Both the position numbers and the translations under genes were made by a program. A DNA stretch of 64,000 nucleotides from an uncultured Bifidobacteriaceae bacterium (lineage in GTDB: Bacteria; Acidobacteriota; Vicinamibacteria; Vicinamibacterales; UBA2999): NCBI GenBank assembly GCA_964619705.1, contig CAZUGF010000001.1:225327-289326 (forward strand), in the 5' to 3' direction. The notes below the pieces were generated by a model. The model saw nothing but the letters and a program-made list of their open reading frames with translations. It made no database searches and was not told the DNA's origin. Of this stretch, positions 5,748-27,090 are shown in pieces. Numbering within the stretch: the first letter of the stretch is position 1; each line of letters begins with the position of its first letter.

Positions 5748-6683
5748 TCAGGCGTCCCCGAACAGCATCACGAGCATCGCCTTCTGCGCGTGCAGGCGGT
5801 TTTCCGCCTGCTCGAAGACGACCGAGGCGCTCGACTCGATGACCTCGTCCGTCACTTCCTCGGAACGGTGCGCGGGGAGGCAGTGCATGAAGGCGGCGTC
5901 CGGCCGCGCGAGCGCCATGAGCGCCTCGTTGACCTGGTAGCGGCTGAACTTGCGCTTCCGCTCCGCGTACTCGACTTCCTGCCCCATCGACGTCCAGACG
6001 TCCGTGTAGACGGCGTCCACGTCCCGGACGGCCGCCTTGGGGTCGGTGAACTCCGTCAGGCCGGCGCCGCCCTGGGAGACCTCCGCCGCCTGGTCCGCGA
6101 CTTCGTCCGGCAGTTCGAAGCCCCTGGGCGTCGCGACGTGGACGGACACGCCGAGCATCATGGCCGCGTGCACGAGCGACGTGCACACGTTGTTGCCGTC
6201 GCCCACGAACGCGATGCGGCGTCCCTCGAACGATCCGTTCCAGCGCTCGGCGAGCGTCTGCATGTCGGCCAGGGCCTGGCACGGGTGCTCTTCGTTGGTG
6301 AGCGCGTTGATGACGCGGAGCGCCGGTGTGGCGAGCGTGATCTCCATCAGCCGGTCCTGGCCGAACGTGCGGATGACGGCGGCATCGACCCAGCGTTCGA
6401 GGTTGCGCGCCACGTCGTCGAGGGGTTCGCGGTCGGCGTGCATCACGTCGGCCGGAATCTCGACGATGTGGCCGCCGAGTTCCCGTACGCCGATGGTGAA
6501 CGTGACGCGCGTGCGGAGGGAGGGCTTCTCGAAGAGCAGGCCGATGTGCCGCCCGGCCAGCGTCTGCGCCGTCGGCGCCTGCGCGCGGCGCTTCCGGTCG
6601 GCCTTGAGGGTCACGGCGAGGTCCACGATCCCGCGCAGCTCGGCCGGCGTCAGGTCCAGGATGGAGAGGAAGTGTCGGTTCAC
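5748..6683 (-). CDS. argF: Ornithine carbamoyltransferase
   Basis: The ORF extends to 7022 but homology starts at the GTG at 6683 (VNRHFLSILDL). Motifs FEKPSLRTRVTF, EEHPCQALAD and FMHCLPAHR are present. It lies 8 nt downstream of the argJ stop. Confidence 0.93.
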   Translation of the reverse strand: MNRHFLSILDLTPAELRGIVDLAVTLKADRKRRAQAPTAQTLAGRHIGLLFEKPSLRTRVTFTIGVRELGGHIVEIPADVMHADREPLDDVARNLERWVDAAVIRTFGQDRLMEITLATPALRVINALTNEEHPCQALADMQTLAERWNGSFEGRRIAFVGDGNNVCTSLVHAAMMLGVSVHVATPRGFELPDEVADQAAEVSQGGAGLTEFTDPKAAVRDVDAVYTDVWTSMGQEVEYAERKRKFSRYQVNEALMALARPDAAFMHCLPAHRSEEVTDEVIESSASVVFEQAENRLHAQKAMLVMLFGDA

Positions 6684-6691
6684 GGGCGTCC

Positions 6692-7900
6692 CTAGGTGCG
6701 ATAGTCCGCGTTGATCCTGACGTACTCGGCTGAGAGGTCGCAGGTCCAGACGGTGGCCTGATGGCGGCCGTCCGTGCCGAGCCCGATCTGGATCTCCAGG
6801 TCGGCCCCCTGCAGGTAGTCCGCCGCCTGCGGTGCGCGGTCGTCGAAGGGGCGGCCGCCCTCGAACAGCACCACGGACCCGATCCGGACGTGCGCGCGAT
6901 CGAGGACGAAGAGCGCGCCCGATCGTCCCGCCGCCGCGACGAGCCGGCCCCAGTTCGGGTCGCCGCCATGGATGGCGGTCTTGACGAGCGGTGAGTTCGC
7001 GATGGCCCGCGCGGCCGTCCACGCGTCCGTCTCTGATGCCGCGCCCGTCACCGTGATGGCGATCAGCTTCGTCGCGCCCTCGCCGCCTCGCACGACAGCC
7101 AGCGCGAGCTCGCGCGCGACGGTCCGGAAGCCGGCAACCAGTGCCGGATACAGCGCCTCATCGATGACGATGCCGCTGGCGCCGTTGGCGAGCGCGAAGA
7201 CCGTGTCGTTGGTCGAAGGCTCGCCGTCGACGGTGATGGCGTTGAACGTGTCACGGCACGCGTCGGTCAGCGCCCGGGCCAGCAGCGCCGCGTCGACGGC
7301 GGCATCGGTGGTCAGGTACCCGAGCATGGTGGCCAGGCGCGGCTCGATCATGCCGGACCCCTTGGCCATGCCTCCCACACGAAACGTGCCGGCGTCGGTC
7401 GAGATGGCCGCCGCGGCTTCCTTGGGGAACGGGTCGGTCGTCATGATCGCCCGCGCCGCGTCGGCGCCGCCGGCATCCGAGAGCGCGGCCACGGCCCGGG
7501 GCAGCCCGGCGCGGATCGCCTCCATTCTGAGGTTGACGCCGATGACGCCCGTTGACGCAACGAGCGCCTGATCGGCCGGGCATCCCGCGGCTGCCGCCGC
7601 GAGCGACGCCATCTCGATGGCGTCCGCCAGGCCCTGCGGCCCGGTGCACGCGTTGGCGCAGCCGCTCGTCGTGATGATCACCCGCGCCTGTCCGCCGCTC
7701 CGGCGCAACTGCTCCTCGCACACGAGGACCGGCGCCGCCCGGGCGAGGTTGATGGTGAACACGCCTGCCGCACTGGCGGGCGTGTCGGACACGATCAGGG
7801 CGAGATCCGGCGCGCCGGACGCCTTGATGCCGCAGTGCACGCCGCTGGCCCGAAACCCGCGCGGCGCCGTGATGCCGCCGCCGATCGGCTCACTGCGCAT
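6692..7900 (-). CDS. argJ: Bifunctional glutamate N-acetyltransferase / amino-acid acetyltransferase
   Basis: 402 aa with the N-terminus GGITAPRGFRASGVHCGIK and an ArgJ self-processing site (RLATMLGYLTTDA). Confidence 0.93.
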   Translation of the reverse strand: MRSEPIGGGITAPRGFRASGVHCGIKASGAPDLALIVSDTPASAAGVFTINLARAAPVLVCEEQLRRSGGQARVIITTSGCANACTGPQGLADAIEMASLAAAAAGCPADQALVASTGVIGVNLRMEAIRAGLPRAVAALSDAGGADAARAIMTTDPFPKEAAAAISTDAGTFRVGGMAKGSGMIEPRLATMLGYLTTDAAVDAALLARALTDACRDTFNAITVDGEPSTNDTVFALANGASGIVIDEALYPALVAGFRTVARELALAVVRGGEGATKLIAITVTGAASETDAWTAARAIANSPLVKTAIHGGDPNWGRLVAAAGRSGALFVLDRAHVRIGSVVLFEGGRPFDDRAPQAADYLQGADLEIQIGLGTDGRHQATVWTCDLSAEYVRINADYRT

Positions 7901-8432
7901 GCGTCAGCACGGCTCCCGCCTGCGCGGCCTCGGCCCGGCGGCCGGCAGCCTCTGCGAGCGGGAGGATCAGGGCCTGCTGGCCGCACGACCGGAAGAGCAG
8001 GCAGGCCGCACAGTCGTGCGCGATCTTCTCCGGCACCCACGTGTGCGGCACGATGGAGAAGCCAAGACGCACGAAGAACGCCGGGTCGTGGGCGAAGGCC
8101 GAGAGCTTGTCGTAGCCGTTGCGACGCGCGCGGCGGGCGAGGTCGTCCACCATGCGCTGGCCGAGTCCCAGCCCGCGGGCCGTCGCGTCGACGACGAGCG
8201 AGCGGACTTCCGCCACCCGGGCGGACAGGGGCGCGAGCTCGGCACAGCCGACCAGGCGCGCTCCGCGGATCGCCACGACGAAGCGCGTCGCGTGTGTCGT
8301 GAGCTCGCCGATGGTCCGCGGCAGGAGGCGGCCCTCTTCGAGGTGCGCCGAGATGAGCGCGTGCAGGGCCGGCGCATCCGCAGCCGTCGCGACCCTGAAG
8401 GTCACCGTGTGGTTGTCGACGACGATCCGCAT
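7890..8432 (-). CDS. GNAT acetyltransferase, short stand-alone N-acetylglutamate-synthase-like
   Basis: Homology starts at the ATG at 8432 (MRIVVDNHTVTFRVATAADAP). It has an acetyl-CoA motif (VVDATARGLGLGQRMV) and a Cys-containing tail (KIAHDCAACLLFRSC). It starts 1 nt after the argD stop and overlaps argJ by 11 nt. Confidence 0.75.
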   Translation of the reverse strand: MRIVVDNHTVTFRVATAADAPALHALISAHLEEGRLLPRTIGELTTHATRFVVAIRGARLVGCAELAPLSARVAEVRSLVVDATARGLGLGQRMVDDLARRARRNGYDKLSAFAHDPAFFVRLGFSIVPHTWVPEKIAHDCAACLLFRSCGQQALILPLAEAAGRRAEAAQAGAVLTHAQ

Positions 8433-8433
8433 G

Positions 8434-9660
8434 TCAGGACTCCACCTCGGACAGGACCCGATCGAGGATGCCGGCCGCTTCGTCGATCTCGGCCGGCGTG
8501 ACGGTGAAGGGCGGCAGCATGCGCACGACGCGCTCGGCCGTGCGGTTGACCAGCAGGCCGGCCTCGAGTGCACGGTCGACGATCGGCTGCGCGTCCACGG
8601 TCAGTTCCAGCCCGCGCATCACACCCACGCCGCGCACGCTCCTGACCAGGGGGTGCTTCTCGCGCAGGGCATCCAGGCGCTGGCCGAAGAGGGGCCCCAC
8701 GGTGCGGACGTGTTCGATGATGCCGCCCCCGGTGTAGGGCACGGCGTTCGCCGTGCCCGTCAGGGCTTCGATTACCGTCAGCGCGGCGCGCATCGCGAGC
8801 AGGTTGCCGCCGTAGGTCGTCCCGTGATCGCCGACGGCGATCTGCGCGGCGACACGTTCGGACACGAGCGCGGCCCCGACCGGCACGCCCGATCCGATGG
8901 CCTTGCCGACGCTCACCAGGTCCGGCGTCCAGCCGAGCGACGGGAAGTGGAATGCCTCGCCCGTCCGGCCCAGCCCGCACTGGATCTCGTCGGCGATGAG
9001 CAGTGTCCCCGTGGAGCTGGTCACGGCTGCGATGGCCGCGGCAAAGGCCGGCGACAGCGGCCGGATGCCGCCCTCGCCCTGGATCGGCTCGGCGATGATC
9101 GCCGCCGTCCTGTCGGTCACGGCTGCTTCCAGGCCGGCGACATCGTCCGGCGCGACGAACGTGACGCCCGGCACCAGCGGGCCGAAGGGCTCGCGGTAGC
9201 GCGGGTTCGAGGTGACCGAGAGCGCACCCATACTCCGCCCGGCGAAGCCGTGCTGCAGCGCGACGAAGCCCGTGCGATCCGTCACGCCCTGCGAGAACCA
9301 GTAGCGGCGCGCGAACTTCAGGCAGGCCTCGACGGCTTCCGCCCCGCTGTTGCAGAAGAACGCGCGCGGCAGGCCGGAGAGGGCCGCCAGCCGTGCCGCC
9401 ACCTGCCCCTGGAGCGGGTGGTAGAACAGGTTCGAGGTCTGGATGAGCGTGGCCGCCTGGTCCGCCACGGCCGCCGCGAGGCCCGGATGCCCGTGGCCGA
9501 GCACCACGACGCCGATGCCGGACAGGAAGTCCAGGTAGCTCCGGCCCTCGACGTCGAACAGGCGGGTACCGTCGCCGCGGGCAAAGACCACGGGCTGCCG
9601 GTTGTAGGTCTGCACGACGTGCCGGGCCTCGAGCGCTCGTACTGCTTCGACTGTCGTCAT
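8434..9660 (-). CDS. argD: Acetylornithine aminotransferase
   Basis: Homology begins at the ATG at 9660 (MTTVEAVRALEARHVVQTYNRQPVVFARGDGTRLFDVEG). This is the class-III aminotransferase fold with a PLP-Lys region (DLVSVGKAIGSG). ATGA overlap with argB. Confidence 0.9.
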   Translation of the reverse strand: MTTVEAVRALEARHVVQTYNRQPVVFARGDGTRLFDVEGRSYLDFLSGIGVVVLGHGHPGLAAAVADQAATLIQTSNLFYHPLQGQVAARLAALSGLPRAFFCNSGAEAVEACLKFARRYWFSQGVTDRTGFVALQHGFAGRSMGALSVTSNPRYREPFGPLVPGVTFVAPDDVAGLEAAVTDRTAAIIAEPIQGEGGIRPLSPAFAAAIAAVTSSTGTLLIADEIQCGLGRTGEAFHFPSLGWTPDLVSVGKAIGSGVPVGAALVSERVAAQIAVGDHGTTYGGNLLAMRAALTVIEALTGTANAVPYTGGGIIEHVRTVGPLFGQRLDALREKHPLVRSVRGVGVMRGLELTVDAQPIVDRALEAGLLVNRTAERVVRMLPPFTVTPAEIDEAAGILDRVLSEVES

Positions 9661-10466
9661 CGCGTGATCCGGGTTCCTGCCGGTCCTGTCAATGGACCAC
9701 GCGCCTGGAGCGCGTGTCCGAGTGCCTTCATGTCGTGCCCGTCGACGACGGCCACCTGCCTGACGCCGCCCCTGGCGGCCGCCTGGCACGCCGCGAGCTT
9801 TGCCACCATGCCCGCGCTCACGGTGCGGGCCTTCACGAGCGTCCGGATCCCGCGCGCATCCAGGAGCGGAATCGTGGCGCCCTGCGCGTCGAGAACGCCG
9901 GAGGTCCCGCCCGCAATCAGGAGCCGCGATGCGCCGAGGCGCACCGCGAGGCTGGCCGCCAGCGTGTCGGCGTTGACGTTGAACAGCCGGCCGCTCCGTG
10001 ATGCGCCGAGACATGCCACGACCGGCACGAAGCCTCGCGCCAAAAGCACCGAGATCAGCACCGGCCGGCCGGCCTTCGAGGGACGGCCGACCAGACCCAG
10101 ATCCACCATCGCGCCGTTCGCGGTCCTGTAGGGCGGCGCCTTGGTGACCGGCGCCACCCCGGCATCGGCGCCCGTCAGCCCGACGGCCTGTCCGCCGGCC
10201 GCGTTGACCGCCGCGACCAGGCGGACGTTGATCGTGCCCGCCAGCACCGGCACCACCACGTCCAGGGTCCGCGCGTCCGTGACGCGGAGCCCGTCCACCT
10301 GCTGCTTCTCGACGCCCGCCTGCGCCAGGGCCGCGTCGATTGCCCGCCCGCCCCCGTGCACGACGACCAGCGGACCGCGCGCGCGCGCGATGGTCCGGCC
10401 GAGGGCCGCCACCGCCGCGGGGTGCTCGAGGAGTTCCCCGCCCAGCTTGAGGAGGGTGCCGTTCAC
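9657..10466 (-). CDS. argB: Acetylglutamate kinase
   Basis: 269 aa with a GTG start and a GTGA overlap with the argC stop. Amino-acid kinase motifs are present (PLVVVHGGGRAID; VACLGASRSGRLFNVNADTLA). Confidence 0.93.
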   Translation of the reverse strand: MNGTLLKLGGELLEHPAAVAALGRTIARARGPLVVVHGGGRAIDAALAQAGVEKQQVDGLRVTDARTLDVVVPVLAGTINVRLVAAVNAAGGQAVGLTGADAGVAPVTKAPPYRTANGAMVDLGLVGRPSKAGRPVLISVLLARGFVPVVACLGASRSGRLFNVNADTLAASLAVRLGASRLLIAGGTSGVLDAQGATIPLLDARGIRTLVKARTVSAGMVAKLAACQAAARGGVRQVAVVDGHDMKALGHALQARGPLTGPAGTRITR

Positions 10467-11509
10467 AGCAGCCCGGCGCGCTCGTCGAAGCCGTGCATCA
10501 CGTTGAAGTTCTGCACCGCCTGTCCCGCCGCACCCTTGATCAGATTGTCAATGACGCTCACGACGAACACGCGACGGCCCGCCTCGTCCACGCGCCACCC
10601 GATGTCGCAGAAGTTCGTGTGCGCGACGTGCTTGATCTCGGGCAGCGCCTCGCCGGTGAGGCGCACGAAGGGCGCCTGCCGATACGCGCGCGCGAACGCG
10701 CCTGCGACGTCGGCGCCCGTAATTCCCGGCGCCAGCTGCGCATACACGCTCGACAGGATGCCGCGCTCGATCGGGACCAGGTGCGGCACGAACGTGACGC
10801 TCGCGCCGAGCGCCTGTTCCATCTCCACGGTGTGGCGGTGCCCGAAGACGCCGTACGCCGCGACGCTCCCGTGGTTCTCGCAGAAGTGCGTCCGATCCGT
10901 CGCCGCCTTGCCGGCCCCGGAGATCCCCGACTTCGCGTCGACGACAACGGCGTGGCCCGGTGCGAGGAGACCTGCCTGCGCAAGGGGCAGCAAGGCGAGC
11001 AGCGAGGCCGTCGGATAGCACCCGGGGTTGGACAGCAGGCGCGCCGGCGCGATTGCCGCCGCCTCGAACTCCGTCAGCCCGTACGCCACGCCGGCCGGCA
11101 GGTCCCCCGTGGCGGGATACCACTGCCTGCGCGCCGCCGCATCGCGGATGCGGTACGCACCGGAAAGATCGATGACCCGGACGCCGGCCTCGATGAGCGC
11201 CGGGGCCGCCTCCGCCGATGCCTTCTCCGGCAGGGCGAGGAACACCGTGTCGGCGCCGGCGGCCATGGCATCGAGATCGAGCGGCACCACCTCGCCGTCC
11301 CAGATGCGGGACAGCGCCGGAAGGCGCCGCGGCGTGCTCGTGGCCTGCGAGCCGGTGGCCATGGCCAGCGTGGCGAACGGGTGCCTGGCCAGGAGGCGCA
11401 CCAGTTCCTGCCCGGCGTACCCGGTGGCACCCGCGATGGCGACACGGACCGCAGCCGTCTCGTGCCGCTGTCCGCCCCCAATCGTTTCCGCCGCGATGGT
11501 CTGGCTCAT
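10463..11509 (-). CDS. argC: N-acetyl-gamma-glutamyl-phosphate reductase
   Basis: 348 aa with an NAD(P) motif (IAGATGYAGQELVRLL) and a catalytic Cys motif (LLSNPGCYPTASLLAL). Confidence 0.93.
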   Translation of the reverse strand: MSQTIAAETIGGGQRHETAAVRVAIAGATGYAGQELVRLLARHPFATLAMATGSQATSTPRRLPALSRIWDGEVVPLDLDAMAAGADTVFLALPEKASAEAAPALIEAGVRVIDLSGAYRIRDAAARRQWYPATGDLPAGVAYGLTEFEAAAIAPARLLSNPGCYPTASLLALLPLAQAGLLAPGHAVVVDAKSGISGAGKAATDRTHFCENHGSVAAYGVFGHRHTVEMEQALGASVTFVPHLVPIERGILSSVYAQLAPGITGADVAGAFARAYRQAPFVRLTGEALPEIKHVAHTNFCDIGWRVDEAGRRVFVVSVIDNLIKGAAGQAVQNFNVMHGFDERAGLL

Positions 11510-11555: not shown

Positions 11556-11573
11556 AAGGATATTTATACATAG
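11556..11573. promoter_or_regulatory. Candidate ARG box (ArgR operator) upstream of argC
   Basis: The reverse complement reads TATGTATAAATATCCTTC. It has about 3 mismatches to the non-N positions of the E. coli-type ARG box TNTGAATWWWWATTCANW. It sits in the only AT-rich patch of the argC/argR intergenic region. Confidence 0.45.
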
Positions 11574-11619
11574 CGTCGCCCCGCCATGTCAAGAAAACAA
11601 ACGACAAACAACGGATCGA

Positions 11620-11637
11620 TATGTATACTGATTCAGT
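11620..11637. promoter_or_regulatory. Candidate ARG box at the argR 5' end
   Basis: TATGTATACTGATTCAGT has 3 mismatches to the non-N positions of TNTGAATWWWWATTCANW. It shares the TATGTATA core with the box at 11556-11573. Confidence 0.5.
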
Positions 11638-12124
11638 TCGCCGTATATTTATGAAGCCACGTCGTCTGGCAGCCATCCGTGACCTCGTCGCCCACGAAGC
11701 CATTCGCAGCCAGGATCAGCTGCGGCAGCAGTTGGCCGTCCGCGGGTTCGTGGTCACGCAGGCCACCCTGTCCCGGGACATCAAGGAACTCGGGCTCGTC
11801 AAGCGTTCCTCGGATGGGGCGTATCAGGCCGAGCGTGCCGAGGAGCAGCCGGCGGCGGCTGCCGCGGCGTCCCAGCTGGCGCGTGCGGTATCCGAGTACC
11901 TGGTGACGGCCGAGCCCGTGCAGCAGCTTGTCGTGCTCCGCACCGGCGTGGGTCAGGCGCAGCTCCTGGGCGTGGCGCTCGATCGCGCGCGGCTGCCGGG
12001 GGTGGCGGGCACCATTGCCGGCGACGACACGATCCTCGTGGTGGCCCGCGATGCCCGGAGCGCGCTGGCCCTCGTGCAGCAGTTCAACGACCTGGCGTCG
12101 GGCGAGGGCGGTCCGGACGAATGA
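11621..12124 (+). CDS. argR: Arginine repressor
   Basis: The ORF starts at the ATG at 11621. The downstream ATG at 11651 (MKPRRLAAIRDLV) is probably the real start, because an ARG box overlaps 11620-11637. It has a wHTH (SQDQLRQQLAVRGFVVTQATLSRDIKELGL) and a C-terminal domain (GTIAGDDTILVV). Confidence 0.9.
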   Translation: MYTDSVRRIFMKPRRLAAIRDLVAHEAIRSQDQLRQQLAVRGFVVTQATLSRDIKELGLVKRSSDGAYQAERAEEQPAAAAAASQLARAVSEYLVTAEPVQQLVVLRTGVGQAQLLGVALDRARLPGVAGTIAGDDTILVVARDARSALALVQQFNDLASGEGGPDE

Positions 12125-13224
12125 GCGTGGAGGGTGGCAGGGTGAACAGCGAACGGATTGTGCTCGCCTACTCGGGCGGGCTCGTGTCGTCGTCGGCGAT
12201 TCCGTGGCTGATCGAGCGCCGTGGCGTGGACGTCGTGGCCGTGACGCTCGACGTCGGCCAGGGGCGTCAGATCGAGGGCGTTCGCGAGCGCGCCCTCGCC
12301 GCCGGAGCGATCCGCGCGCACGTGCTCGACAGGTCCCATGCGTTCGTGGCGGACATGGCGTGGCCGGTCGTCCAGGCCGGCATCGATCCCGAGCCGTCGG
12401 ACGTGCTGCTGGCGGCGCCGCTCGTGGCGCAGGCCCTCGTCGAGATCGCCCGGCTCGAGCGCGCGACGCTCGTGGCGCACGGCGCGCGGGGAGAGGTCGG
12501 GCGTGCGCTCGATGCGCTGATACGCGCGGTCGATCCTCGCGTGGACGTCGTGTCGCCGGAGATCCCGCTCGACCGGGACGAGATCGTCGCCTGGCTCGAC
12601 GCGCGGGGGTTGAGCGCGCCGGGCGGCGATGCCGCGCTGGTGGCGGAGGCGACCATCTGGGGCACGAGTGTCCGCGGGCCGGCGCTCGCGGATGCCTGGC
12701 ACGAGGCGCCGGACGCGGCGTTCACCTCCGCGCGCCCGGCGGCGGAATGTCCGGACACGCCCGCGCACCTGGAGATCACCTTCGATCGCGGCGTGCCCCT
12801 GGAGGTCAACGGCGTGGCCATGCCGCTGACGGAACTGGTGGACAGCGTGGCCACGATTGCCGGGGCGCACGGCGTCGGGCGCGACGATGTCGTGGGTGCG
12901 CGCGGCGCGGACCGCACGCGTGAGGTCCGGGACGCGCCTGCGGCGGCGGTCCTCCGCCAGGCGCACCGCGCCCTCGCCGCGGCCGTGCTGTCCGGCGAGG
13001 AGATGGCGTTCCGCGCGCAGGCGGCCGGTCAGTACCTGTCGCTCCTGCGCGGCGGCCGGTGGCTCTCCGGTTTCCGGGAGGACCTGGACGCCTATCGCGA
13101 CCGCGTGCAGGCGCGGCTGACGGGGACCGTCCGGCTGAGGCTCTTCAAGGGACACAGCCAGGTCGTGGGCCGCCGCGTCGCGCAGTATGATCCACAGCTG
13201 ATGCACGCGGCCGCGGGCGAGTGA
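12121..13224 (+). CDS. Argininosuccinate-synthase homologue with divergent/degenerate signature motifs
   Basis: ATGA-coupled to argR and followed by argH. It is colinear with ArgG (RIVLAYSGGLVSS...; GVGRDDVV...; LRLFKGHSQVVGRR). However, AYSGGLDTS reads AYSGGLVSS and the GxTxKGNDxxRF region reads HGARGEVGRALDAL. Confidence 0.75.
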   Translation: MSVEGGRVNSERIVLAYSGGLVSSSAIPWLIERRGVDVVAVTLDVGQGRQIEGVRERALAAGAIRAHVLDRSHAFVADMAWPVVQAGIDPEPSDVLLAAPLVAQALVEIARLERATLVAHGARGEVGRALDALIRAVDPRVDVVSPEIPLDRDEIVAWLDARGLSAPGGDAALVAEATIWGTSVRGPALADAWHEAPDAAFTSARPAAECPDTPAHLEITFDRGVPLEVNGVAMPLTELVDSVATIAGAHGVGRDDVVGARGADRTREVRDAPAAAVLRQAHRALAAAVLSGEEMAFRAQAAGQYLSLLRGGRWLSGFREDLDAYRDRVQARLTGTVRLRLFKGHSQVVGRRVAQYDPQLMHAAAGE

Positions 13225-13264
13225 CGGCCCGGCGCACGGCTGCCAACTCTCGCCGAGGAATCCC

Positions 13265-14656
13265 GTGTCCCAACACCTCTGGTCCGGCCGCTTCGATGCG
13301 GCGCCGGATCCTGCCGCCTTTGATTTCGGCCTCTCGTTTCCGTTCGACCGCCGCCTGTTCGAAGACGATGTGACAGGCAGCCTGGCGTGGGCCGATGCGC
13401 TGGCGGACGCCGGCGTGCTCGCCCCCGCGGATGCGTCCGCCATCCGCGACGGCCTGCAGGCCATCCTCGAGGACGGCCGCCGCGATCCATCCTGGATTGC
13501 CGGGTCGGATGAGGACGTGCACAGCTTCGTCGAGCGCCAGCTCGTCGCGCGCATCGGCGACGCGGGCCGGCGCCTCCACACCGGACGATCCCGGAACGAG
13601 CAGGTGTCGGTGGACCTCCGGCTGTACCTGAGACGCCGCATTCCGGTACTCCAGGCGAAGCTGCGCGCGACGATCGCCGCCCTCGCGGAACAGGCCGCGC
13701 GCGCCGGCGACGCGCTGATGCCGTCGTACACGCACATGCGCCGCGCGATGCCCGTGCTGGTGTCGCACTACTTCCTCGCGCACGCGGCGGCCCTCCGGCG
13801 CGATCACGATCGGCTCACGCAGGCCCGGGCGGATGCCGACGCGCTGACGCTCGGCTCGGGCGCCGTCGCCGGGACCGGCTACCCGGTGGACACCGCGGCC
13901 CTCGCGCGCCGTCTCGGGTTCTCGCGGGTCGTCGCGAACAGCATCGACGCGTCCTCGGATCGCGACTTCGCCGCGGCGTTCCTCTTCGCCGTCTCGCTCA
14001 CGATGGTGCACCTCTCGCGGATCGCGGAGGACGTCATCCTCTTCACGAGCGAGGAATTCGGGTTCTTCGACCTCGCGGACGCGACAGCCACCGGCAGCAG
14101 CATGATGCCGCAGAAGAAGAACCCCGACCCGCTGGAGCTCGTGCGCGGCAAGACGGGACGCGCCGTCGGCCACGTGACGGGCTTCCTGGTCACCATGAAG
14201 GGGCTGCCGACCGGCTACAACAAGGACCTGCAGGAGGACAAGGAACCGCTGTTCGATGCGGAGGACACGCTGAGCGTCTCGCTCGATGCGACCTCCGCCG
14301 TCGTGTCGCAGCTGGCGCTGAACGCGGCCCGCACGGGGCGCGCGGCATCCGGCCTGCTCCTCGCCACCGACGTGGCCGACTACCTGGTTTCGCGCGGCAT
14401 GCCGTTCCGGCAGGCGCACGAGGTCGTCGGCGCGATGGTGCGGCAGCTCATCGAGGACGGGCGGGACATCGAGCAGTTGACGGTGCCCGAGTGGCAGGCC
14501 TTCCACCCCCTCTTCGCGGACGACGTGAAGGCACGGGTCACGGCCGGGGCCTCGGTGCGGGCCCGCCGCACGCCACAGTCGACCCATCCGGACGCGGTGG
14601 CGGCCCACCTGGCCGAACTGTCCGCGTGGCTGGCCGGAAATGCGGTCGAATCCTGA
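13265..14656 (+). CDS. argH: Argininosuccinate lyase
   Basis: 463 aa with the fumarate-lyase family signature (TGSSMMPQKKNPD) and the typical N-terminus LWSGRF. Confidence 0.95.
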   Translation: MSQHLWSGRFDAAPDPAAFDFGLSFPFDRRLFEDDVTGSLAWADALADAGVLAPADASAIRDGLQAILEDGRRDPSWIAGSDEDVHSFVERQLVARIGDAGRRLHTGRSRNEQVSVDLRLYLRRRIPVLQAKLRATIAALAEQAARAGDALMPSYTHMRRAMPVLVSHYFLAHAAALRRDHDRLTQARADADALTLGSGAVAGTGYPVDTAALARRLGFSRVVANSIDASSDRDFAAAFLFAVSLTMVHLSRIAEDVILFTSEEFGFFDLADATATGSSMMPQKKNPDPLELVRGKTGRAVGHVTGFLVTMKGLPTGYNKDLQEDKEPLFDAEDTLSVSLDATSAVVSQLALNAARTGRAASGLLLATDVADYLVSRGMPFRQAHEVVGAMVRQLIEDGRDIEQLTVPEWQAFHPLFADDVKARVTAGASVRARRTPQSTHPDAVAAHLAELSAWLAGNAVES

Positions 14657-14808
14657 TGGTTTCCCGTGCCGCTTGCTCACGACTGAGGGGTCTGGTAAAC
14701 TCCCCTTGCCCTGCGCCCTGCGGTCTATCGATCGTTCAGGCCTGAGCTTCCCACCATTCTTTGCTTGATGCTCTTGACGGGCCTGTAGGAGCTTTTCGGG
14801 GGAGTTGC

Positions 14809-15462
14809 ATGCAGCAACGCCAGTATCGACCTGGCGACGTGCTGGACGATTACTGTCCGCGCGAGCGTCGCATTACGGACCATGCCATCGTGGCGATGGT
14901 CGAAGACGGGATCGGACGCACACGCTGTGTCGTGTGCGACGCGGAGCACGAGTTCAAGAACGCCCGCGTGCCGACCCAACGCAAGAAGACAACCACGGCG
15001 GCCCTGTTCACGCAGGTCCTCGACAACCTCGAGGCGCCGGCGGGTCGGCTGGCCACGCCTGCCGATACGGCACCCGACCCCGACGCGCCGGCCGTGCCCG
15101 ACGCCGTGGAGCCGGCATCCGCGCCGCCGCCGCCCGCGTCAGACGAAGGCCATGCCGGCGATGCCCGGCCCGAGCCCTCGGACGACAGGCCGTTTCGCCG
15201 GTCCCTGATCCGCGCCCAGCTCCCTCGTCCCGAGGGGCAGCCTCCCACGCCACGCGCCATTCCCGAGTTCACCATGCACCAGCCGCTCAACGCGGGCCGG
15301 CGCCCGGGGAACGCGCGCTTCCGCCGCCGTCCGGGCGCACAGCCCGACAGCACGGGACCGATGCGGTTCGGCCGCGATCAGGGTCAGGGTCAGGGTCAAG
15401 GTCAGGGCCGGGAGCAGGGCAGCGGCCAGGGCGGCCGCCGCCGGCGCCGCAAGAAGCACTGA
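14809..15462 (+). CDS. Hypothetical protein: N-terminal Cys/His (zinc-ribbon-like) module and a disordered basic tail
   Basis: The ATG at 14809 follows GGGGGAG (the ORF track starts at a TTG at 14761). It has CPRERRITDH...CVVCDAEH, then a Pro/Ala-rich region, and ends GQGQGQGQGQGREQGSGQGGRRRRRKKH. No family recognised. Confidence 0.6.
   Translation: MQQRQYRPGDVLDDYCPRERRITDHAIVAMVEDGIGRTRCVVCDAEHEFKNARVPTQRKKTTTAALFTQVLDNLEAPAGRLATPADTAPDPDAPAVPDAVEPASAPPPPASDEGHAGDARPEPSDDRPFRRSLIRAQLPRPEGQPPTPRAIPEFTMHQPLNAGRRPGNARFRRRPGAQPDSTGPMRFGRDQGQGQGQGQGREQGSGQGGRRRRRKKH
15379..15408 (+). repeat. Hexanucleotide tandem repeat (CAGGGT-like x5) inside the CDS, encoding (GQ)n
   Basis: The sequence reads cagggt cagggt cagggt caaggt cagggc directly. 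Confidence 0.8.
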
Positions 15463-16320: not shown

Positions 16321-17031
16321 CTACTCGTCGTACCGCTCGACGACGATCGCCCCGACGGGGACGCCAATCCGGATCAGGCTGTCACAGACATCGCGGACGA
16401 GGAGCGGCGGCCCGCACACGAGGCACCGCGCATCCGGCGCGGGCAGCGCGGTCTTCAGCAGCGACTCGTCGATCCGTCCCGTCCGGCCCATCCACCGCGG
16501 CGTCTCGGTCCGCGTGACGGTCAGGTGGAGTGTCAGCCGCCCGGCACCCGCCAGCCCCTCGAGTTCGTCCCGGTAGGCGAACTCGTCCGGCGCGCGCGCA
16601 CTGTACAGCATCGCCGTGCGAGGCGCGGGCATCCGGTGCAGGGCCTCGAGGAGCATCGATCGCAGCGGGGCGATGCCCGTACCGCCGGCCACCAGCAGGA
16701 GCGGAACATCCGGATCCGCCGGCGGCAATCCGAACGTCCCGAACGGTCCGTCGACGTCCAGCGCCACGCCCGGTGCGGCCAGCTCCACGTGCGGATCGAG
16801 CCCGCCCGTGTCGTCGACGTGAACGAGCAGCTCCATGACGCCGTCGCGCGCGACCTCGAACGGTGCGGAGGCAATCGAGTAGGGCTTGCGCAGGGGAGAG
16901 CCGTGGAGCCCGACCATCACGGCCTGTCCGGCGGTGAAGACGTAGCCGGAGTCGCCGGTTTCCAGTTGGAGGACGCGCGTCCTGGGCGTGGCCCGGCGGA
17001 CCGCCCTCACGGTCAGCGTCTGCAGTGACAC
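16321..17031 (-). CDS. Ferredoxin-NADP reductase-like FAD/NAD(P)-binding oxidoreductase
   Basis: GTG start. FAD motif LRKPYSIASAP and NAD(P) motif LLLVAGGTGIAPLRSML. It lies 28 nt downstream of the HD-GYP/GGDEF gene on the same strand. Confidence 0.75.
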   Translation of the reverse strand: MSLQTLTVRAVRRATPRTRVLQLETGDSGYVFTAGQAVMVGLHGSPLRKPYSIASAPFEVARDGVMELLVHVDDTGGLDPHVELAAPGVALDVDGPFGTFGLPPADPDVPLLLVAGGTGIAPLRSMLLEALHRMPAPRTAMLYSARAPDEFAYRDELEGLAGAGRLTLHLTVTRTETPRWMGRTGRIDESLLKTALPAPDARCLVCGPPLLVRDVCDSLIRIGVPVGAIVVERYDE

Positions 17032-17059
17032 CTGCCGATCGTAGACCGGGAGCGTGGCG

Positions 17060-19744
17060 CTATGGAACGCCGAAGCCCGCGCGCTCGACGCCGACCTCGG
17101 AGTACGCGGGGGCCGCGTCCGGTGGGGTCCGTGCTTCGCTGCCGGCTGCCGGAGACTCGGCGCCGTTCTCGGACTTCCGCCGCGTCTTGTCGCGGTACAT
17201 CCGCGTATCGGCGGCGGCCATGAGCGACTCGTACGCGTCGCCGTCCCGCGGAAAGATCGCGGCGCCCACGCTGACGGTCAGCGGCTGGCGCCGGCCGGGA
17301 CCGGCGTCGAACGGATAGGCGGCGACGGCGGTCTGCAGTTCCAGGCGCTTGCGTTCGGCCTCCTCGGGGCCGCACCCGGACAGGACGACGATGAACTCGT
17401 CGCCCGCGTAGCGCACGCAGATGTCGTAGGGCCGGACGACCGACTTGATGACGGCGGCGACTTCCCGCAGGGCGCGATCCCCCACGTGATGGCCGTGGGT
17501 GTCGTTGATGGCCTTGAAGTTGTCGAGGTCCATGACCAGCAGCGCCACCTCGTTCTTCATGCGCTCCGCGCGTGCCAGCTCGCGCGAGAGGTGCGTGAAC
17601 ATGAAGCGCGTGTTGGGCAGCCCGGTCAGCTGGTCGGTGAGGGAGTCCTCCTGCGTCTGCTCGAAGATCATCGAGTTGTGGATGACGGCGGAGGCCTGCT
17701 CCGACACCCGGTCCAGCAGCCGGCGATGGTCGTCCGTGTAGAAGTCCGGCTCGACGTGATACACGGCCAGCGACCCGATGAAGCGATCGTTGAACACCAG
17801 CGGCGCGACGAGCGCGGACTGCAGGTCCGTGGACGGGGGCACGATGCCCGCGGCCTCGAAGTCGGCGCTCGGCCGGGCATTGACCAGCGGCCGGCGGTTT
17901 CGCGCGACCCATCCTGTCAACCCCTGGCCGGATCGGATCGACATGGACGCGATCGCGTCGGACTCCGCGCCCGTGGCGAAGCGGCAGCGGAGCATCTCGC
18001 TCGGCTCGTCGTGGAGGAAGAGGGCGCAGGACGTGAACGGGACGAGGTTGCTCAACTTGGATGCGATGAGCGCCATCGTGTCCGCGATGCCGAGGCTCGT
18101 TCCCATCGCCTGCGCGATCTCGTAGAGCGCGTAGATCTCGCGGTGGGCGTGCGCGATGTCGTCAAAGACCGTGTTCGTCCGGGCGGGCGGCGCGCCGTTG
18201 TCGTCCGCCTCGGGCTGAAAGCCCGCGGCGGGACCGCCGAGCGTGGAAGTCGCATCCAGCGACAGGCGCCGCGCCGGGCGCGTGTCGAGCGCGTCGGCCT
18301 GGACCAGCATCGCGGGGAGCTTCTGCGTGAAGACCTGGACCACCTTGGGATCCAGCGCGCGTCCGGCCTCCTTCTGCAGGAGCGCGAGGGCGTTCTCGCG
18401 GCTCATCGCCTTGTGATACGGCCGGTCCGACGTGAGGGCGTCGAAGTAATCCACGACGGCCAGGATGCGCGCGCCCAGCGGGATGTCCTCGCCCGCGAGT
18501 CCCTGCGGGTAGCCGCTGCCGTCCCAGCGCTCGTGATGGCTCAGGATGAGCGGTGCGACGGGGTACGGGAACGGCACGGCGCTGATGATCTCGGCGCCCA
18601 CCTGCGGATGGAGGCGGATCTTCTGGAACTCCTCCTGCGTGAGCGGGCCTGGCTTCGAGAGGATGTGTTCGGGTACGGCGAGCTTGCCGATGTCGTGCAG
18701 GAGGGCGGCCGTCCGGACCCCCTGGATGGCCATCTCCGGCATGCCGAAGCTGCGGGCCACCTCGGTTGCGTAGAGCTGCACGCGCCGGATGTGCGTCTGC
18801 GTCGTCTGATCCTTGGCGTCGATGGCCAGCGCGAGCGCCTCGATGGTCGCCAGGTGCAGGTCCGCCATCTCGTTGACGTGCCGCCGCTCGTCGTCGATCC
18901 GGCCGAGGTACACCTTGTAGGTGCGATAGGTGAGGTAGAGCGGCGCCGCGAAGAGCAGCCCCACCCACACGCCCGAGGAGAGGACGGCCCAGGCGGCGGC
19001 CGCCGCCGCGCCCGCCCCGACGAAGTAGCTCGGCGCGCTCCAGAGGAAGTTCTGCTGCCACACCGTTGCCAGGTTCTCGCGCGTGAAGAGGGCGATGGCG
19101 ATGGCGATGGTGAAGGTGTTGAACAGGAAGTAGACGGTGGCCGCGGCGACCAGCGGCCGCGCGACGCCCGTCAGCGTCGGTGCCAGCACGCCCGGCACGC
19201 CGCCCGCCAGTTCGTAGGCAAAGCCCGCGGTCTGGACCGTCAGCGCCAGGCACGCCATGCTGAAGAGCGTCCGGTAGACGGGATTGGGCGTCTTCATCCG
19301 GAACGTGCACTGGCTCCAGGCACTGGTGACCGCCACCAGGAGCGTCGGGGTCGGGCCGAGCAGCAGCAGCGCCGCGAAGTCCACGGCGTAGGAGACCGAC
19401 ATCGTGGAGCCGCTGCGATCCAGCGGCAGCCGCACCTTGAATGCCGAGGTGACGGACGAGAGGAGCAGCAGCGCGAGGAAGAGGTACGGGTGCGGGAAGG
19501 AGAACTGCGGAATCTTCCAGACGAGCAGCGCCAGGCCGGCCGCAATCACGGCGCCGATGTAGAGACGAGCAGCCAGGGGGAGCGAGCGCATCTCTAGGTC
19601 CGGGCCGGCCGGTGGCACACGCCGCTCCGGTTCCACGATGGCGCCGCCCGCCGCGGGGTGCACCTCTTCCGTGACGTTCTGACCATGCCGTGCCTGCGAA
19701 CGAGCATAACTGGCGTTAGAGTCATGTTCCCACACGTTCTTCAC
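17060..19744 (-). CDS. Multi-pass membrane HD-GYP / GAF / GGDEF (AGDEF) c-di-GMP turnover protein
   Basis: 894 aa from the GTG at 19744 (alternative ATG at 19591). Residues ~50-270 are hydrophobic. It has an HD-GYP domain (HDIGKLAVPEH ... HHERWDGSGYPQGL), a GAF-like region and a GGDEF domain with an I-site (RPYDICVRYAGDEFIVVL). Confidence 0.85.
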   Translation of the reverse strand: MKNVWEHDSNASYARSQARHGQNVTEEVHPAAGGAIVEPERRVPPAGPDLEMRSLPLAARLYIGAVIAAGLALLVWKIPQFSFPHPYLFLALLLLSSVTSAFKVRLPLDRSGSTMSVSYAVDFAALLLLGPTPTLLVAVTSAWSQCTFRMKTPNPVYRTLFSMACLALTVQTAGFAYELAGGVPGVLAPTLTGVARPLVAAATVYFLFNTFTIAIAIALFTRENLATVWQQNFLWSAPSYFVGAGAAAAAAWAVLSSGVWVGLLFAAPLYLTYRTYKVYLGRIDDERRHVNEMADLHLATIEALALAIDAKDQTTQTHIRRVQLYATEVARSFGMPEMAIQGVRTAALLHDIGKLAVPEHILSKPGPLTQEEFQKIRLHPQVGAEIISAVPFPYPVAPLILSHHERWDGSGYPQGLAGEDIPLGARILAVVDYFDALTSDRPYHKAMSRENALALLQKEAGRALDPKVVQVFTQKLPAMLVQADALDTRPARRLSLDATSTLGGPAAGFQPEADDNGAPPARTNTVFDDIAHAHREIYALYEIAQAMGTSLGIADTMALIASKLSNLVPFTSCALFLHDEPSEMLRCRFATGAESDAIASMSIRSGQGLTGWVARNRRPLVNARPSADFEAAGIVPPSTDLQSALVAPLVFNDRFIGSLAVYHVEPDFYTDDHRRLLDRVSEQASAVIHNSMIFEQTQEDSLTDQLTGLPNTRFMFTHLSRELARAERMKNEVALLVMDLDNFKAINDTHGHHVGDRALREVAAVIKSVVRPYDICVRYAGDEFIVVLSGCGPEEAERKRLELQTAVAAYPFDAGPGRRQPLTVSVGAAIFPRDGDAYESLMAAADTRMYRDKTRRKSENGAESPAAGSEARTPPDAAPAYSEVGVERAGFGVP

Positions 19745-23926: not shown

Positions 23927-24625
23927 TCAGCGCGGCGACGGATGCCGGTACGCCGTCGGGTCCGGCACGCTGGCGGCCGCGAACGCATCGCGCCGTTCGC
24001 GGCACTTGCTGCACCGCCCGCAGTGCACCGGCACCCCCGCGGCCCCGTCGTCGCCGTCCGTGCCCGTCATGCACGACATCGTCAACTCCAGGGGGACGCC
24101 GAGCCCGGCACCTCGCCTGATCACGTCCTCCTTGCGCCAGTCGGCGAAGGGCGTGGCGATCGTGACGCCGCGGTCGAGGCCGAGGGAGATCGCCTGCTGC
24201 ATGGCGGTAAAGAAGGCCGGCCGTGCGTCGGGGAACGGGTTGCCGGCCAGCGGCCCGAGCGCGATGCGGTCCGCACCGTGCGATGCGGCTACGATGCCCG
24301 CCTTGGCCAGCAGGACGAGGTTGCGCCCCGCGAGGTAGACGTCCTCGTCGGGCGTGTCGTACGCCGGCGGCACGCCGCGCACGGCCCAGTGGCCCGGGGG
24401 GTACACGTCGCGCATCGTGAACGCGACGCGTGCGAGCGGCAACACGCGGCTGGCGAAGACCGCGTGCTGCAGCAGCCGATCGAGCATGGCCAGCTCCCGG
24501 GCCTCCCACGCCAGCCCCACGCTCACGTGTACGGGAAGGACGCGCCCGTCCACGGCTTCGTGCGCGGCGAGCACGGCGCTGTCGAGGCCGCCGGACAGGA
24601 GCACAAGCGTCAATCGATCGCTCAT
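23927..24625 (-). CDS. queC: 7-cyano-7-deazaguanine synthase
   Basis: Homology begins at the ATG at 24625 with a PP-loop (LTLVLLSGGLDSAV). It has a C-terminal Zn Cys cluster (SCM...HCGRCSKCRER). Confidence 0.9.
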   Translation of the reverse strand: MSDRLTLVLLSGGLDSAVLAAHEAVDGRVLPVHVSVGLAWEARELAMLDRLLQHAVFASRVLPLARVAFTMRDVYPPGHWAVRGVPPAYDTPDEDVYLAGRNLVLLAKAGIVAASHGADRIALGPLAGNPFPDARPAFFTAMQQAISLGLDRGVTIATPFADWRKEDVIRRGAGLGVPLELTMSCMTGTDGDDGAAGVPVHCGRCSKCRERRDAFAAASVPDPTAYRHPSPR

Positions 24626-24652
24626 ACGGGCTATTCTCTCCCGAGGCCCCGC

Positions 24653-25327
24653 ATGCTGATTGTCTTCGACCTGGATGGCACCCTCATCGACTCCGTCCGC
24701 GATCTGGCGGAGTCCGCCTCGGAACTCGTGCAGGGCTACGGTGCGCCGCCGCTCTCCACCGACGCGGTCGCCGCGATGGTCGGCGACGGCGCACGCGTGC
24801 TCGTGCGCCGCGCGCTGGAGCAGTCCGGGCTGGACCCCGACGAGGCCGGCGCCCTGCCTCGCTTCCTCGAGATCTACGACCGGCGCCTGCTCGATCACAC
24901 GCGTGCGTATCCCGGCACCATCGAGGTGCTGGCCTCGCTCGTGGCCGCCGGCCCGATGGCGGTGCTCACGAACAAGCCGGTGGCGCCGTCCGAGGCCATC
25001 CTGGGTGCGCTGGGCCTGCGCGGGTTCTTCCACCAGGTGATCGGAGGCGATGGACCCTTTGCGCGCAAGCCGGATCCGGCCGGCCTCGGGTCCTTGATGG
25101 CGCGATGGCCCGGGCCGGCGCTGATGGTGGGGGATTCACCGGCGGACTACGAGACCGCACGTGCGGCCGGGTGTACCCCGGTCCTGGCGCGCTACGGGTT
25201 CGGGATCGCGAGGTTCGGCGGGACGCTGCCGGCAGACGCTGCCGTCATCGATCACGTCCGCGCGCTGCCGGCGATCGTGGAGACCATCACCTTGGACGCC
25301 GCCCGCATCCCGATCGTGATGCGCTGA
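24653..25327 (+). CDS. HAD-superfamily phosphatase (phosphoglycolate-phosphatase-like)
   Basis: The ATG at 24653 lies within a longer ORF. HAD motifs are present: IVFDLDGTLIDS, VLTNKP and MVGDSPADYE. Confidence 0.8.
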   Translation: MLIVFDLDGTLIDSVRDLAESASELVQGYGAPPLSTDAVAAMVGDGARVLVRRALEQSGLDPDEAGALPRFLEIYDRRLLDHTRAYPGTIEVLASLVAAGPMAVLTNKPVAPSEAILGALGLRGFFHQVIGGDGPFARKPDPAGLGSLMARWPGPALMVGDSPADYETARAAGCTPVLARYGFGIARFGGTLPADAAVIDHVRALPAIVETITLDAARIPIVMR

Positions 25328-25941
25328 CCCTCGCGCCCCTTCAGCTCCACGCTGTCCGACACGTCATCGCGCGCGCTGACTTCGATCGTCTCGCCCGGCT
25401 TCAGGTGGTGTCGCGCGATGAAGCGGAGGAACGCGGCATCCTGATCCGTCACCCGGCTCACGACGACCGGTTCGCGCAGGGGACAGTTGAGCAGCGAGAC
25501 GACATCCTTCTGCGGCACGCGCCCGTCGGCCGTCGGGATGGGATCGCCGTGAGGGTCCGCGTCGGGATAGCCCAGCATCTCGTCGATGCGCTCGATCAGC
25601 TTGTCCGACACGACGTGCTCGAGGTGCTCGGCATCGTCGTGGACCTCGTCCCACCGGAAGCCCATCACCTGAACGAGGAAGAGCTCGATGAGGCGATGGC
25701 GGCGAAGGACGAGCGCGGCGAGCTTCTCGCCCGCCGGGCTGAGGCGGACACCGATGTACGGCTCGTAGGCGACGAGCCCGGACTCGGCCAGGGCCTTGAC
25801 CATCGTCGTGGCCGTTCCGGGCGCGACGCTGAGCGCGGCCGCCAGCTGACCCATGGGGAGCATGCGCTGCCCCTCGGGCAACTGCGTCTCGCCCATGTAG
25901 ATGGCCTTGAGGTAATTCTCGACGGTGCTCGACGGAAGCAT
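25252..25941 (-). CDS. DtxR/IdeR/MntR-family metal-dependent repressor with C-terminal SH3/FeoA-like domain
   Basis: 229 aa with the N-terminus VENYLKAIY. It has a wHTH (MGQLAAALSVAPGTATTMVKAL), a metal/dimerisation region (RRHRLIELFL...VHDDAEHLEHVVS...DPHGDPIP) and an SH3-like tail. Confidence 0.85.
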   Translation of the reverse strand: MLPSSTVENYLKAIYMGETQLPEGQRMLPMGQLAAALSVAPGTATTMVKALAESGLVAYEPYIGVRLSPAGEKLAALVLRRHRLIELFLVQVMGFRWDEVHDDAEHLEHVVSDKLIERIDEMLGYPDADPHGDPIPTADGRVPQKDVVSLLNCPLREPVVVSRVTDQDAAFLRFIARHHLKPGETIEVSARDDVSDSVELKGREGQRITIGMRAASKVMVSTIAGSART

Positions 25942-25983
25942 CGTGTTATCAGAAGTTTACCAGAATCCACGCTCGCGGCCCGG

Positions 25984-26026
25984 TTGACTTTTTGCCAGAT
26001 AGTGTTGTTTAATTTTGTGTAGTCAA
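25984..26026. promoter_or_regulatory. Divergent promoter/operator candidate between the dtxR-like gene and the feo operon
   Basis: TTGACT (25984-25989) and AGTCAA (26021-26026) form an inverted pair. TTGACT-18 nt-TTTAAT (26008-26013) reads as a sigma70-type promoter for the + strand. This is the only AT-rich stretch locally. Confidence 0.4.
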
Positions 26027-26060
26027 AATCAACTCGGGCCACCGGCTCGGGTCAGCGTCC

Positions 26061-27071: not shown

Positions 27072-27090
27072 GGGCGGCCGAGGAGACACC

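Follow-up and report, generated by a model that had tools for sequence, protein, structure and literature searches.

The question raised by this locus is what kind of gene occupies the place of argininosuccinate synthase (ASS) in an arginine biosynthesis cluster when the active site of that enzyme is missing from it. The locus lies in a 64-kb stretch of contig CAZUGF010000001.1, referred to as the window, where an open reading frame (ORF) of 367 amino acids (aa) is found in the argG slot, between the arginine repressor gene argR and the argininosuccinate lyase gene argH (positions 12121 to 13224, plus strand). This ORF is called here the argG-slot gene and its protein P0001; all positions are in the numbering of the window. 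By fold and descent P0001 belongs to the ArgG superfamily, and it fails every functional criterion of ArgG that was tested. The gene is probably a catalytically dead relic, left by the displacement of a type I argG by a type II argG and kept under weak selection.

The ATG of the argG-slot gene overlaps the TGA stop codon of argR (ATGA at 12121-12124, in the context gaATGAgc). argR itself starts at 11621 or 11651, the second being the choice of gene callers, and ends at 12124 on the plus strand. Downstream is argH (13265 to 14656, plus strand), an intact lyase gene with a GTG start and its own Shine-Dalgarno sequence, GAGGA, at 13255-13259, six bases before the GTG at 13265. The gap between the argG-slot gene and argH is just 40 nucleotides (nt), and the idea of a split gene was rejected on this ground. 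P0001 matches the Pfam domains PF00764 (E 6e-28) and PF20979 (E 2e-37), and the G+C content at third codon positions of its gene is 0.90, typical of real genes in the window. The original prediction of an ArgG homologue coupled to argR and followed by argH is confirmed. The score of P0001 is under the cut-offs of both NCBIfam ArgG equivalog models (243.2 bits vs 334 for NF001770, 227.1 vs 268.2 for TIGR00032), as is that of an ortholog, P0002; against the type II model NF003779 it is 65.5 bits, with a cut-off of 657. The other arg genes had been described as not decayed, and every one of them does clear its NCBIfam cut-off: ArgH with 521 bits over 279.5 (TIGR00838), ArgF with 335 over 281, ArgJ with 473 over 351, ArgD with 417 over 410, ArgB with 167 over 151 and ArgC with 364 over 234.

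The losses in P0001 are distributed over the whole former active site, and are described here in the residue numbering of Thermus thermophilus ArgG for individual positions. The PP-loop remnant reads AYSGGLVSS (residues 16-24 of P0001; 12166 to 12192, plus strand, as are all of the following segments) in place of the canonical AYSGGLDTS, the invariant Asp being replaced by Val. This Asp is required for ATP pyrophosphatase chemistry. The segment IDPEPSDVLLAAP (12382 to 12420) shows a 3-aa deletion and substitutions where the citrulline contacts Y84 and T88-S89 are found in the canonical LYEDRYPMxTAL. The sequence HGARGEVGRALDAL (residues 120-133; 12478 to 12519) stands for the second signature, HG-x-T-G-K-G-N-D-Q-V-R-[LIF]. 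When aligned, this region reads HGARGEVGR--ALDAL, with T116R, K118E, G119 and N120 deleted, D121V and R124A, and thus has neither G-N-D nor R-F. The S173...E184 substrate loop is represented by EATIWGTSVRG (residues 176-186; 12646 to 12678), which has D175E, N177T and E184R and retains only WG and S182; S173, just upstream, is Val. The sequence DVVGARGADRTREV (residues 256-269; 12886 to 12927) stands for D-x-V-E-N-R-x-x-G-x-K-S-R-E-I-Y and displays E258G, N259A, K265R and Y270R. The C-terminus is early (13141 to 13224): P0001 stops 13 residues past LFKG..VVGRR and lacks the tail (ALYD..ATYD..FDH..GFI.., about 40 aa) that forms the oligomerisation arm in canonical ArgG. The readings of the PP-loop, the second signature and the two substrate-contact segments given in the original prediction are all found exactly as reported.

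All ten ligand or catalytic positions that were scored are lost in P0001 (D12, Y84, T116, N120, D121, R124, S173, E184, E258 and Y270). The ten positions match in all sequences classed as canonical, a class defined by at least nine of the ten, and for six positions a conservation of 96% or more is listed in 114 canonical sequences. The PP-loop position is D in 100% of these 114 sequences vs 14% of 107 degenerate ones. The alignments used were phmmer alignments to the ArgG structures of T. thermophilus (1j1z), Legionella (6xnq) and Mycobacterium (4u7j), a MAFFT alignment with canonical relatives (45-48% identity) and a second MAFFT alignment with the slot genes of 22 related loci. The three sources concur at each motif because conserved anchors (AHG, WGR, HGVGR, RE..APA) flank the motifs. 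An AlphaFold2 (AF2) model of P0001 has a predicted local distance difference test (pLDDT) score of 89.7, which falls to 77-86 in the two loops that formerly bound substrate, EATIWGTSVRG included. In a Foldseek search the model shows a template modelling (TM) score of 0.87 to 7k5z and 1kh1, and of 0.86-0.88 across the solved ArgGs, and the two-domain ArgG fold is retained in this model. The superposition of the model, together with the concordant alignments, means that the catalytic residues are not present in shifted positions; the comparison with profiles and structures that had been proposed as a check thus maps the losses onto the ligand positions.

The origin of the gene is seen from synteny. 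The layout argF-argJ-GNAT-argD-argB-argC<>argR-X-argH is present in essentially all Vicinamibacteria-like loci that were fetched, and X is a fully canonical ArgG in L007, L009-L013, L017, L027, L089 and L091. Since the same slot holds a canonical type I ArgG in syntenic loci, the argG-slot gene is an in-place ortholog and not, as had been suggested, a paralogue in the argG position; it descends in place from the type I argG of the Vicinamibacteria arg operon. Two canonical ArgGs that were considered as possible second copies, P0049 and P0058, both occupy the slot of other organisms. Among the matches listed, the canonical ArgGs closest to P0001 are from Vicinamibacterales and Acidobacteriota, and a scan of genome contigs gave no 100% match among the 600 listed, the best being at 47%. 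The window also encodes sigma-54 activators and a TonB-dependent receptor that includes a CarboxypepD_reg domain. On this evidence the organism is a Vicinamibacteria-like soil Acidobacterium, and an actinobacterial origin was rejected. Compared with type I ArgG (TIGR00032 and NF001770; 1J1Z/1KH1, 7K5Z), P0001 is 45-48% identical to canonical Vicinamibacterales ArgG and 32-36% identical to the solved structures, and it shares with them both Pfam domains, the TM score of 0.87, the argR-X-argH slot and the fold-core residues. It differs from them in the absence of the PP-loop Asp, the T-x-K-G-N-D-x-x-R block, Y84, S173, E184, E258, Y270 and the tail of about 40 aa, and in its rate of evolution, 2-6 times that of ArgH, whereas type I ArgG evolves at the rate of ArgH or slower.

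P0001 is not a singular case. Seven metagenomic proteins (P0002-P0008; 50-56% identical, 343-368 aa) have the same losses. Synteny with the window extends over 20 kb in a 132-kb JGI contig (L004), which has an ortholog of P0001; the two slot proteins are 56.6% identical vs 68-91% for the neighbours (ArgH 84%, ArgF 86%). All degenerate groups have lengths of 341-368 aa, and the products of most canonical slot genes have 394-419 aa. In group B (L015, L016, L018, L023, L039, L054) the PP-loop reads SGGL[RQ]S[ST], G119 and N120 are deleted, and S173R, E184G and E258K are present; about half of the pocket is retained, with Y84, T88, R124, N177 and Y270 in most members. Group C consists of L032, L042 and L068, and partly degenerate slot genes are found in L008, L014, L019 and L006; all of these loci are from GTDB genomes. 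In a tree of ArgH, ArgC and ArgR, groups A and B are monophyletic and sister to one another, the partly degenerate L008 comes next, and group C, L068 and L014 are placed apart. This implies that degeneration took place independently at least three times.

A search with a group A profile against 1.84 billion representatives at 50% identity gave 748 matches below 1e-30. Some 130 proteins in the top 150 of these 748 are short, at about 280-380 aa, and retain between none and five of the ten catalytic residues; in two spot checks, P0132 (with a 4-bp overlap) and P0156, the gene follows argR. In an alignment of 107 degenerate representatives, 80 positions are 75-99% conserved, and almost all of these are conserved in real ArgG too (A6, G9, D34, G36, Q37, H113, WGR, HGVGR, P273, W314 and G335 are examples). 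The ligand columns of the same representatives have no consensus and frequent gaps, and there is no residue whose conservation is particular to the degenerate set. Thus the fold was kept and the pocket released, which is not the pattern of a new enzyme.

Relatives were also sampled in a metagenome scan through ArgH in place of ArgG, at 62-81% ArgH identity. Presence or absence in the slot was taken from a tblastn map, the automatic calls of the slot ORF being wrong at L125, L132, L135 and L140. The relatives span canonical, full-length degenerate, shrunken and empty slots. Shrunken genes of about 240-335 aa are found in L094, L098, L099, L101, L104, L105 and L150, and in L097, L103, L106, L123 and L152 argR lies directly before an intact argH. 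In an organism with an empty slot and an intact argH, argininosuccinate must therefore come from a gene outside the operon. With no ligand consensus in 107 representatives, and with relatives that shrink or delete the gene and still keep argH, the highly divergent functional lineage that was one of the two options in the original prediction is not supported. The other option, a pseudo-enzyme in the argG position, is supported, with the fold kept, ten of ten scored positions lost and purifying selection on the gene. A literature search on ArgG pseudoenzymes, ArgG-like proteins, and arginine biosynthesis or auxotrophy in Vicinamibacteria found no account of a degenerate ArgG, and this large, fast-evolving family of ArgG relics is apparently undescribed.

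Rates of evolution separate the degenerate and canonical slots. In degenerate pairs, the nonsynonymous divergence (dN) of the slot gene is 2-6.4 times that of argH, and in canonical pairs the ratio is at most 1: ArgG and ArgH of L007 and L011 are both 75% identical, and for L007 and L009 dN is 0.02 in ArgG vs 0.04 in ArgH. The ratio of dN to synonymous divergence (dS), omega, for the degenerate slot genes lies in the range 0.12-0.49 with NG86 and 0.04-0.11 with maximum likelihood (ML) and YN00, values that are rough because dS is saturated (about 0.6 to more than 3), so that only the qualitative result is safe. The omega of argH in degenerate lineages is 0.04-0.11 by NG86 and 0.02-0.05 by YN00 and ML, with the exception of the pair formed by the window and L004, in which the ML dS of argH is unstable and the qualitative result alone was used. 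The dN/dS is well below 1 even for the shrunken copies of L098 and L150. An omega well below 1 means that this is not neutral decay. As in a pseudoenzyme, homology is combined with loss of the ligand residues, and intact ORFs are found in more than 100 clusters under purifying selection, though the gene is lost in some lineages.

Where the synthase step may have gone is indicated by two relatives that have a second argG close to the operon. Type II ArgG (NF003779; 1K92/1KP3) belongs to the same superfamily as P0001, but it is about 24% identical to it, has 445-455 aa with the motifs AFSGGLDTS and GSTFKGNDIERFYR intact, and is extremely conserved. In L102, whose ArgH is 72% identical to that of the window, the order is argR, a degenerate slot gene (358 aa, three of the ten sites), argH, the ORF of about 217 aa described below (p217), SDR and FNR, followed by an argG of the E. 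coli type that runs to the end of the contig and has both AFSGGLDTS and GSTFKGNDIERFYR intact. L175 (NCBI contig JADMIO010803634.1, 68.8 kb) shares the gene order of the window between argJ and QueC, with an ArgH identity of 75%, and its slot holds a 257-aa relic. A full-length type II argG (P0500, 10001-11362) lies there between an FNR-like gene and an HD-GGDEF gene; it scores 880.7 bits against NF003779, for which the cut-off is 657, and the same arrangement was assembled independently in Logan SRR14001470. The L175 accession looks like a bulk metagenome assembly, and its taxonomy therefore rests on synteny with the window. The synthase step in L102 and L175 appears to be done by this intact second type of argG, a few kb downstream of argH. 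The corresponding junction in the window, between the FNR-like gene (16321-17031, minus strand) and the HD-GGDEF gene (17060-19744, minus strand), is the 28 bp from 17032 to 17059, and no argG is present in it.

Several further observations concern the type II genes. The type II ArgGs of L102 and L175 are 88-91% identical to their 120 best database matches, and presumably about 80% identical to E. coli ArgG. For the L102 fragment (6404-6832) the matches are mainly truncated proteins, which are uninformative for taxonomy, and the few that are named span several phyla. The Tyr codon of FYRYGLL, 24 nt before the end of the L102 contig, reads TAA in this gene, probably through an assembly error. 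On L174 (ENA ERZ25039606 contig_30201, 166 kb, 69% GC) the type II argG (10001-11500) is split into at least four frames and its neighbours are split too, breaks that are typical of an uncorrected long-read assembly; many 'partial' type II ArgG proteins in the databases may be such artefacts. P0269 is from a frameshift-rich long-read contig, and P0365 represents one metagenome-assembled genome of Acidobacteriota with a type II argG beside PPK2.

A pseudoenzyme lineage derived from ArgG via displacement of type I by type II is the best-supported account of these data. By this account, a separately encoded type II argG would have taken over the synthase step in part of the clade (xenologous displacement), the type I copy would have become redundant, and with the end of selection on catalysis the active site and the C-terminal arm would have been lost. 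The ORF would persist as a translated, foldable and weakly constrained gene, and some lineages would whittle it down or delete it from the slot. Its persistence could reflect a residual non-catalytic role, by partner binding or by nucleotide binding through the retained SGG, D-x-GQ and HG, or alternatively the constraints on a well-expressed, foldable ORF between argR and argH. The second argG of this genome, if present, would lie outside the 64-kb window.

Some points weigh against this account. No second argG of either type was found within the window by tblastn with T. thermophilus ArgG, a six-frame hidden Markov model search, or searches with an E. coli-type ArgG and P0500, and none turned up at distances of up to 10 kb from the slot in its nearest relatives (L004, L015-L018, L054). 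Displacement is therefore extrapolated from two distant relatives with 72-75% ArgH identity, and for the genome of the window, where no type II argG is seen, it is inferred and not shown. The search with the E. coli-type ArgG covered the window and about 90 loci, and the type II identification rests on the NCBIfam score of P0500 and on the motifs. The assignment of the ten positions as ligands of ATP, aspartate and citrulline follows the T. thermophilus and human ASS structures. The pocket remnants in group B suggest that the degenerate copies may not all be equally dead. Finally, even with the saturation of dS in mind, purifying selection that persists for so long fits a mere relic poorly and hints at some function.

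Such a function is the core of the alternative that survives best, in which P0001 would be a regulatory or scaffolding pseudoenzyme with a specific partner (ArgR, ArgH or type II ArgG), possibly able to bind a nucleotide. The precedent is HisZ, a dead HisRS paralogue that regulates HisG; its regulatory role has been demonstrated, and its family has a conserved interface of its own. By analogy, P0001 is also a homologue of an essential enzyme without catalytic residues, intact in the operon of its pathway and under purifying selection. The dN/dS well below 1 over a long divergence, shrunken L098 and L150 included, is what a retained role would give, and so are the intact ORF in dozens of lineages, the confident AF2 model and the polar positions D-x-GQ, H113, HGVGR and R319, which are conserved as in real ArgG. 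An overlap between the ATG of the slot gene and the argR stop codon is seen in the window, P0132, L102 and L175, and is a further point in favor of this role. However, the absence of any residue conserved specifically in the degenerate family means that neither a newly shared surface nor a pocket signature can be recognised, which sets the family apart from HisZ. It also differs from HisZ in being dispensable, with outright gene deletion in several lineages; internal deletions are tolerated as well, as in the 257-aa relic of L175, and argH has a Shine-Dalgarno sequence of its own, which also counts against this role. On balance a dedicated regulatory role for P0001 appears unlikely. The broader proposal, that the degenerate ArgGs form a large undescribed family of dedicated non-catalytic arginine-pathway proteins, HisZ-like, freed by displacement and possibly sensing adenine nucleotides, seems to us doubtful.

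At the other extreme, the argG-slot gene could be a neutrally decaying pseudogene that has stayed open since stop codons are rare at 70% GC. The loss of all catalytic residues would be expected of it, the gene evolves fastest in the cluster, and the relatives form a continuum from shrinkage to complete loss. Against this, pairs with dS of about 1 or more still have 70-86% aa identity and an omega of 0.04-0.49, the number of 50%-identity clusters with an open frame of similar length is well above 100, and the fold-core columns are 80-99% conserved. The coding-type G+C content at third codon positions and the pLDDT of the model are likewise not those of a drifting sequence, and neutral decay is quite improbable.

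Still less probable is a new enzymatic reaction or substrate, with P0001 as an adenylating protein of the ArgG fold comparable to ArtA or argG_rel. The fold does serve other chemistry: the nitrile synthetase ArtA (9LEI/9LEH) is among both the sequence and the fold matches of P0001, with a TM score of 0.83-0.85, and some substitutions recur, such as T116R together with Y270R in seven of the eight members of group A, and D12R/Q, S173R and E258K in group B. But ArtA is far remoter in sequence than ArgG (E 2e-11 vs 3e-57), and no conserved alternative pocket is seen. The PP-loop Asp is gone and its replacement is variable (V, S, A or L), and the pocket loops have indels without a family-wide consensus. 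NF038212 (argG_rel) is likewise an ArgG-like protein, one that curators separate from true ArgG, but at 114.9 bits, with a cut-off of 425, P0001 is not a member of it and is much nearer to true type I ArgG.

That P0001 is the sole working synthase with a remodelled active site is scarcely credible: it is located in the arg operon, argH is strongly selected so that argininosuccinate must be made, and the 64-kb window has no other argG, but the ten scored positions are replaced, and differently so in 56%-identical orthologs and across the 107 representatives, while relatives with empty slots retain argH and relatives with relics possess an intact type II argG.

The genes of the cluster are not in one co-linear argCJBDFRGH array; two divergent units are seen instead, argF-argJ-GNAT-argD-argB-argC on the minus strand and argR, the argG-slot gene and argH on the plus strand. 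The minus-strand unit (5748 to 11509), all genes of which are intact, consists of argF (5748-6689), argJ (6692-7900), a GNAT acetyltransferase gene (from about 7890 to 8440 or 8573), argD (8434-9660), argB (9657-10466) and argC (10463-11509). All related loci have the GNAT gene in this place, with argJ and argD on either side, and its best NCBIfam matches are the N-acetyltransferase NF005840 (under the cut-off) and the acetyltransferase domain of ArgA and ArgH-fusion models; judged from these matches, it may be an additional N-acetylglutamate synthase beside ArgJ. The intergenic region between argC and argR (11556 to 11655) has AT-rich, partly palindromic stretches, TATTTATACATA and TATGTATACTGA...GTATATTTATGAA, in a genome of 70% GC, and these are candidate ARG boxes. 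The palindromic set TATGTATACTGATTCAG...GTATATTTATGAA overlaps the longer argR start (11621 vs 11651), and the 157-aa ArgR of the gene callers is therefore favored.

Directly 3′ of argH is the ORF of about 217 aa (14761-15462, plus strand), without a Pfam or NCBIfam match, which is kept behind argH across the clade with 40-67% identity, beside canonical and degenerate slot genes alike. This ORF and the GNAT gene were considered as clade-specific replacements of ArgG and rejected, as both adjoin canonical ArgG too. Farther downstream, the ORF of a QueC-family PP-loop ATPase (23930-25033, minus strand), a gene that is syntenic in L175, has about 140 surplus N-terminal residues; the QueC domain covers residues 143-353, and the true start is probably further inside the ORF. 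At 25252-29309, two genes for DtxR/IdeR-type iron-dependent repressors, each fused to FeoA (229 aa, minus strand, and 336 aa, plus strand), lie beside a feoB-like gene, an unusual doubling.

The findings bear on annotation. Degenerate proteins already carry the public label 'argininosuccinate synthase' (P0002 and P0003 at JGI; MDH4064607.1, which is P0008, at NCBI). Group B, for example L015:10001-11074, exceeds the TIGR00032 cut-off (295 vs 268.2) though D12, N120, S173, E184 and E258 are absent, and automated pipelines therefore name its members argininosuccinate synthase. When the metabolism of a major soil phylum is reconstructed, the ASS step would be assigned to the wrong gene, and auxotrophy would be predicted at empty slots. 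The clade also presents an unusually complete displacement series, from canonical to dead but folded, shrunken and deleted slot genes, and in two contigs an intact type II argG is a neighbour of the operon. This series offers a system for asking why a dead enzyme stays selected for so long, and if it is true that the relic has a non-catalytic role, it would be a new pseudoenzyme in amino-acid biosynthesis.

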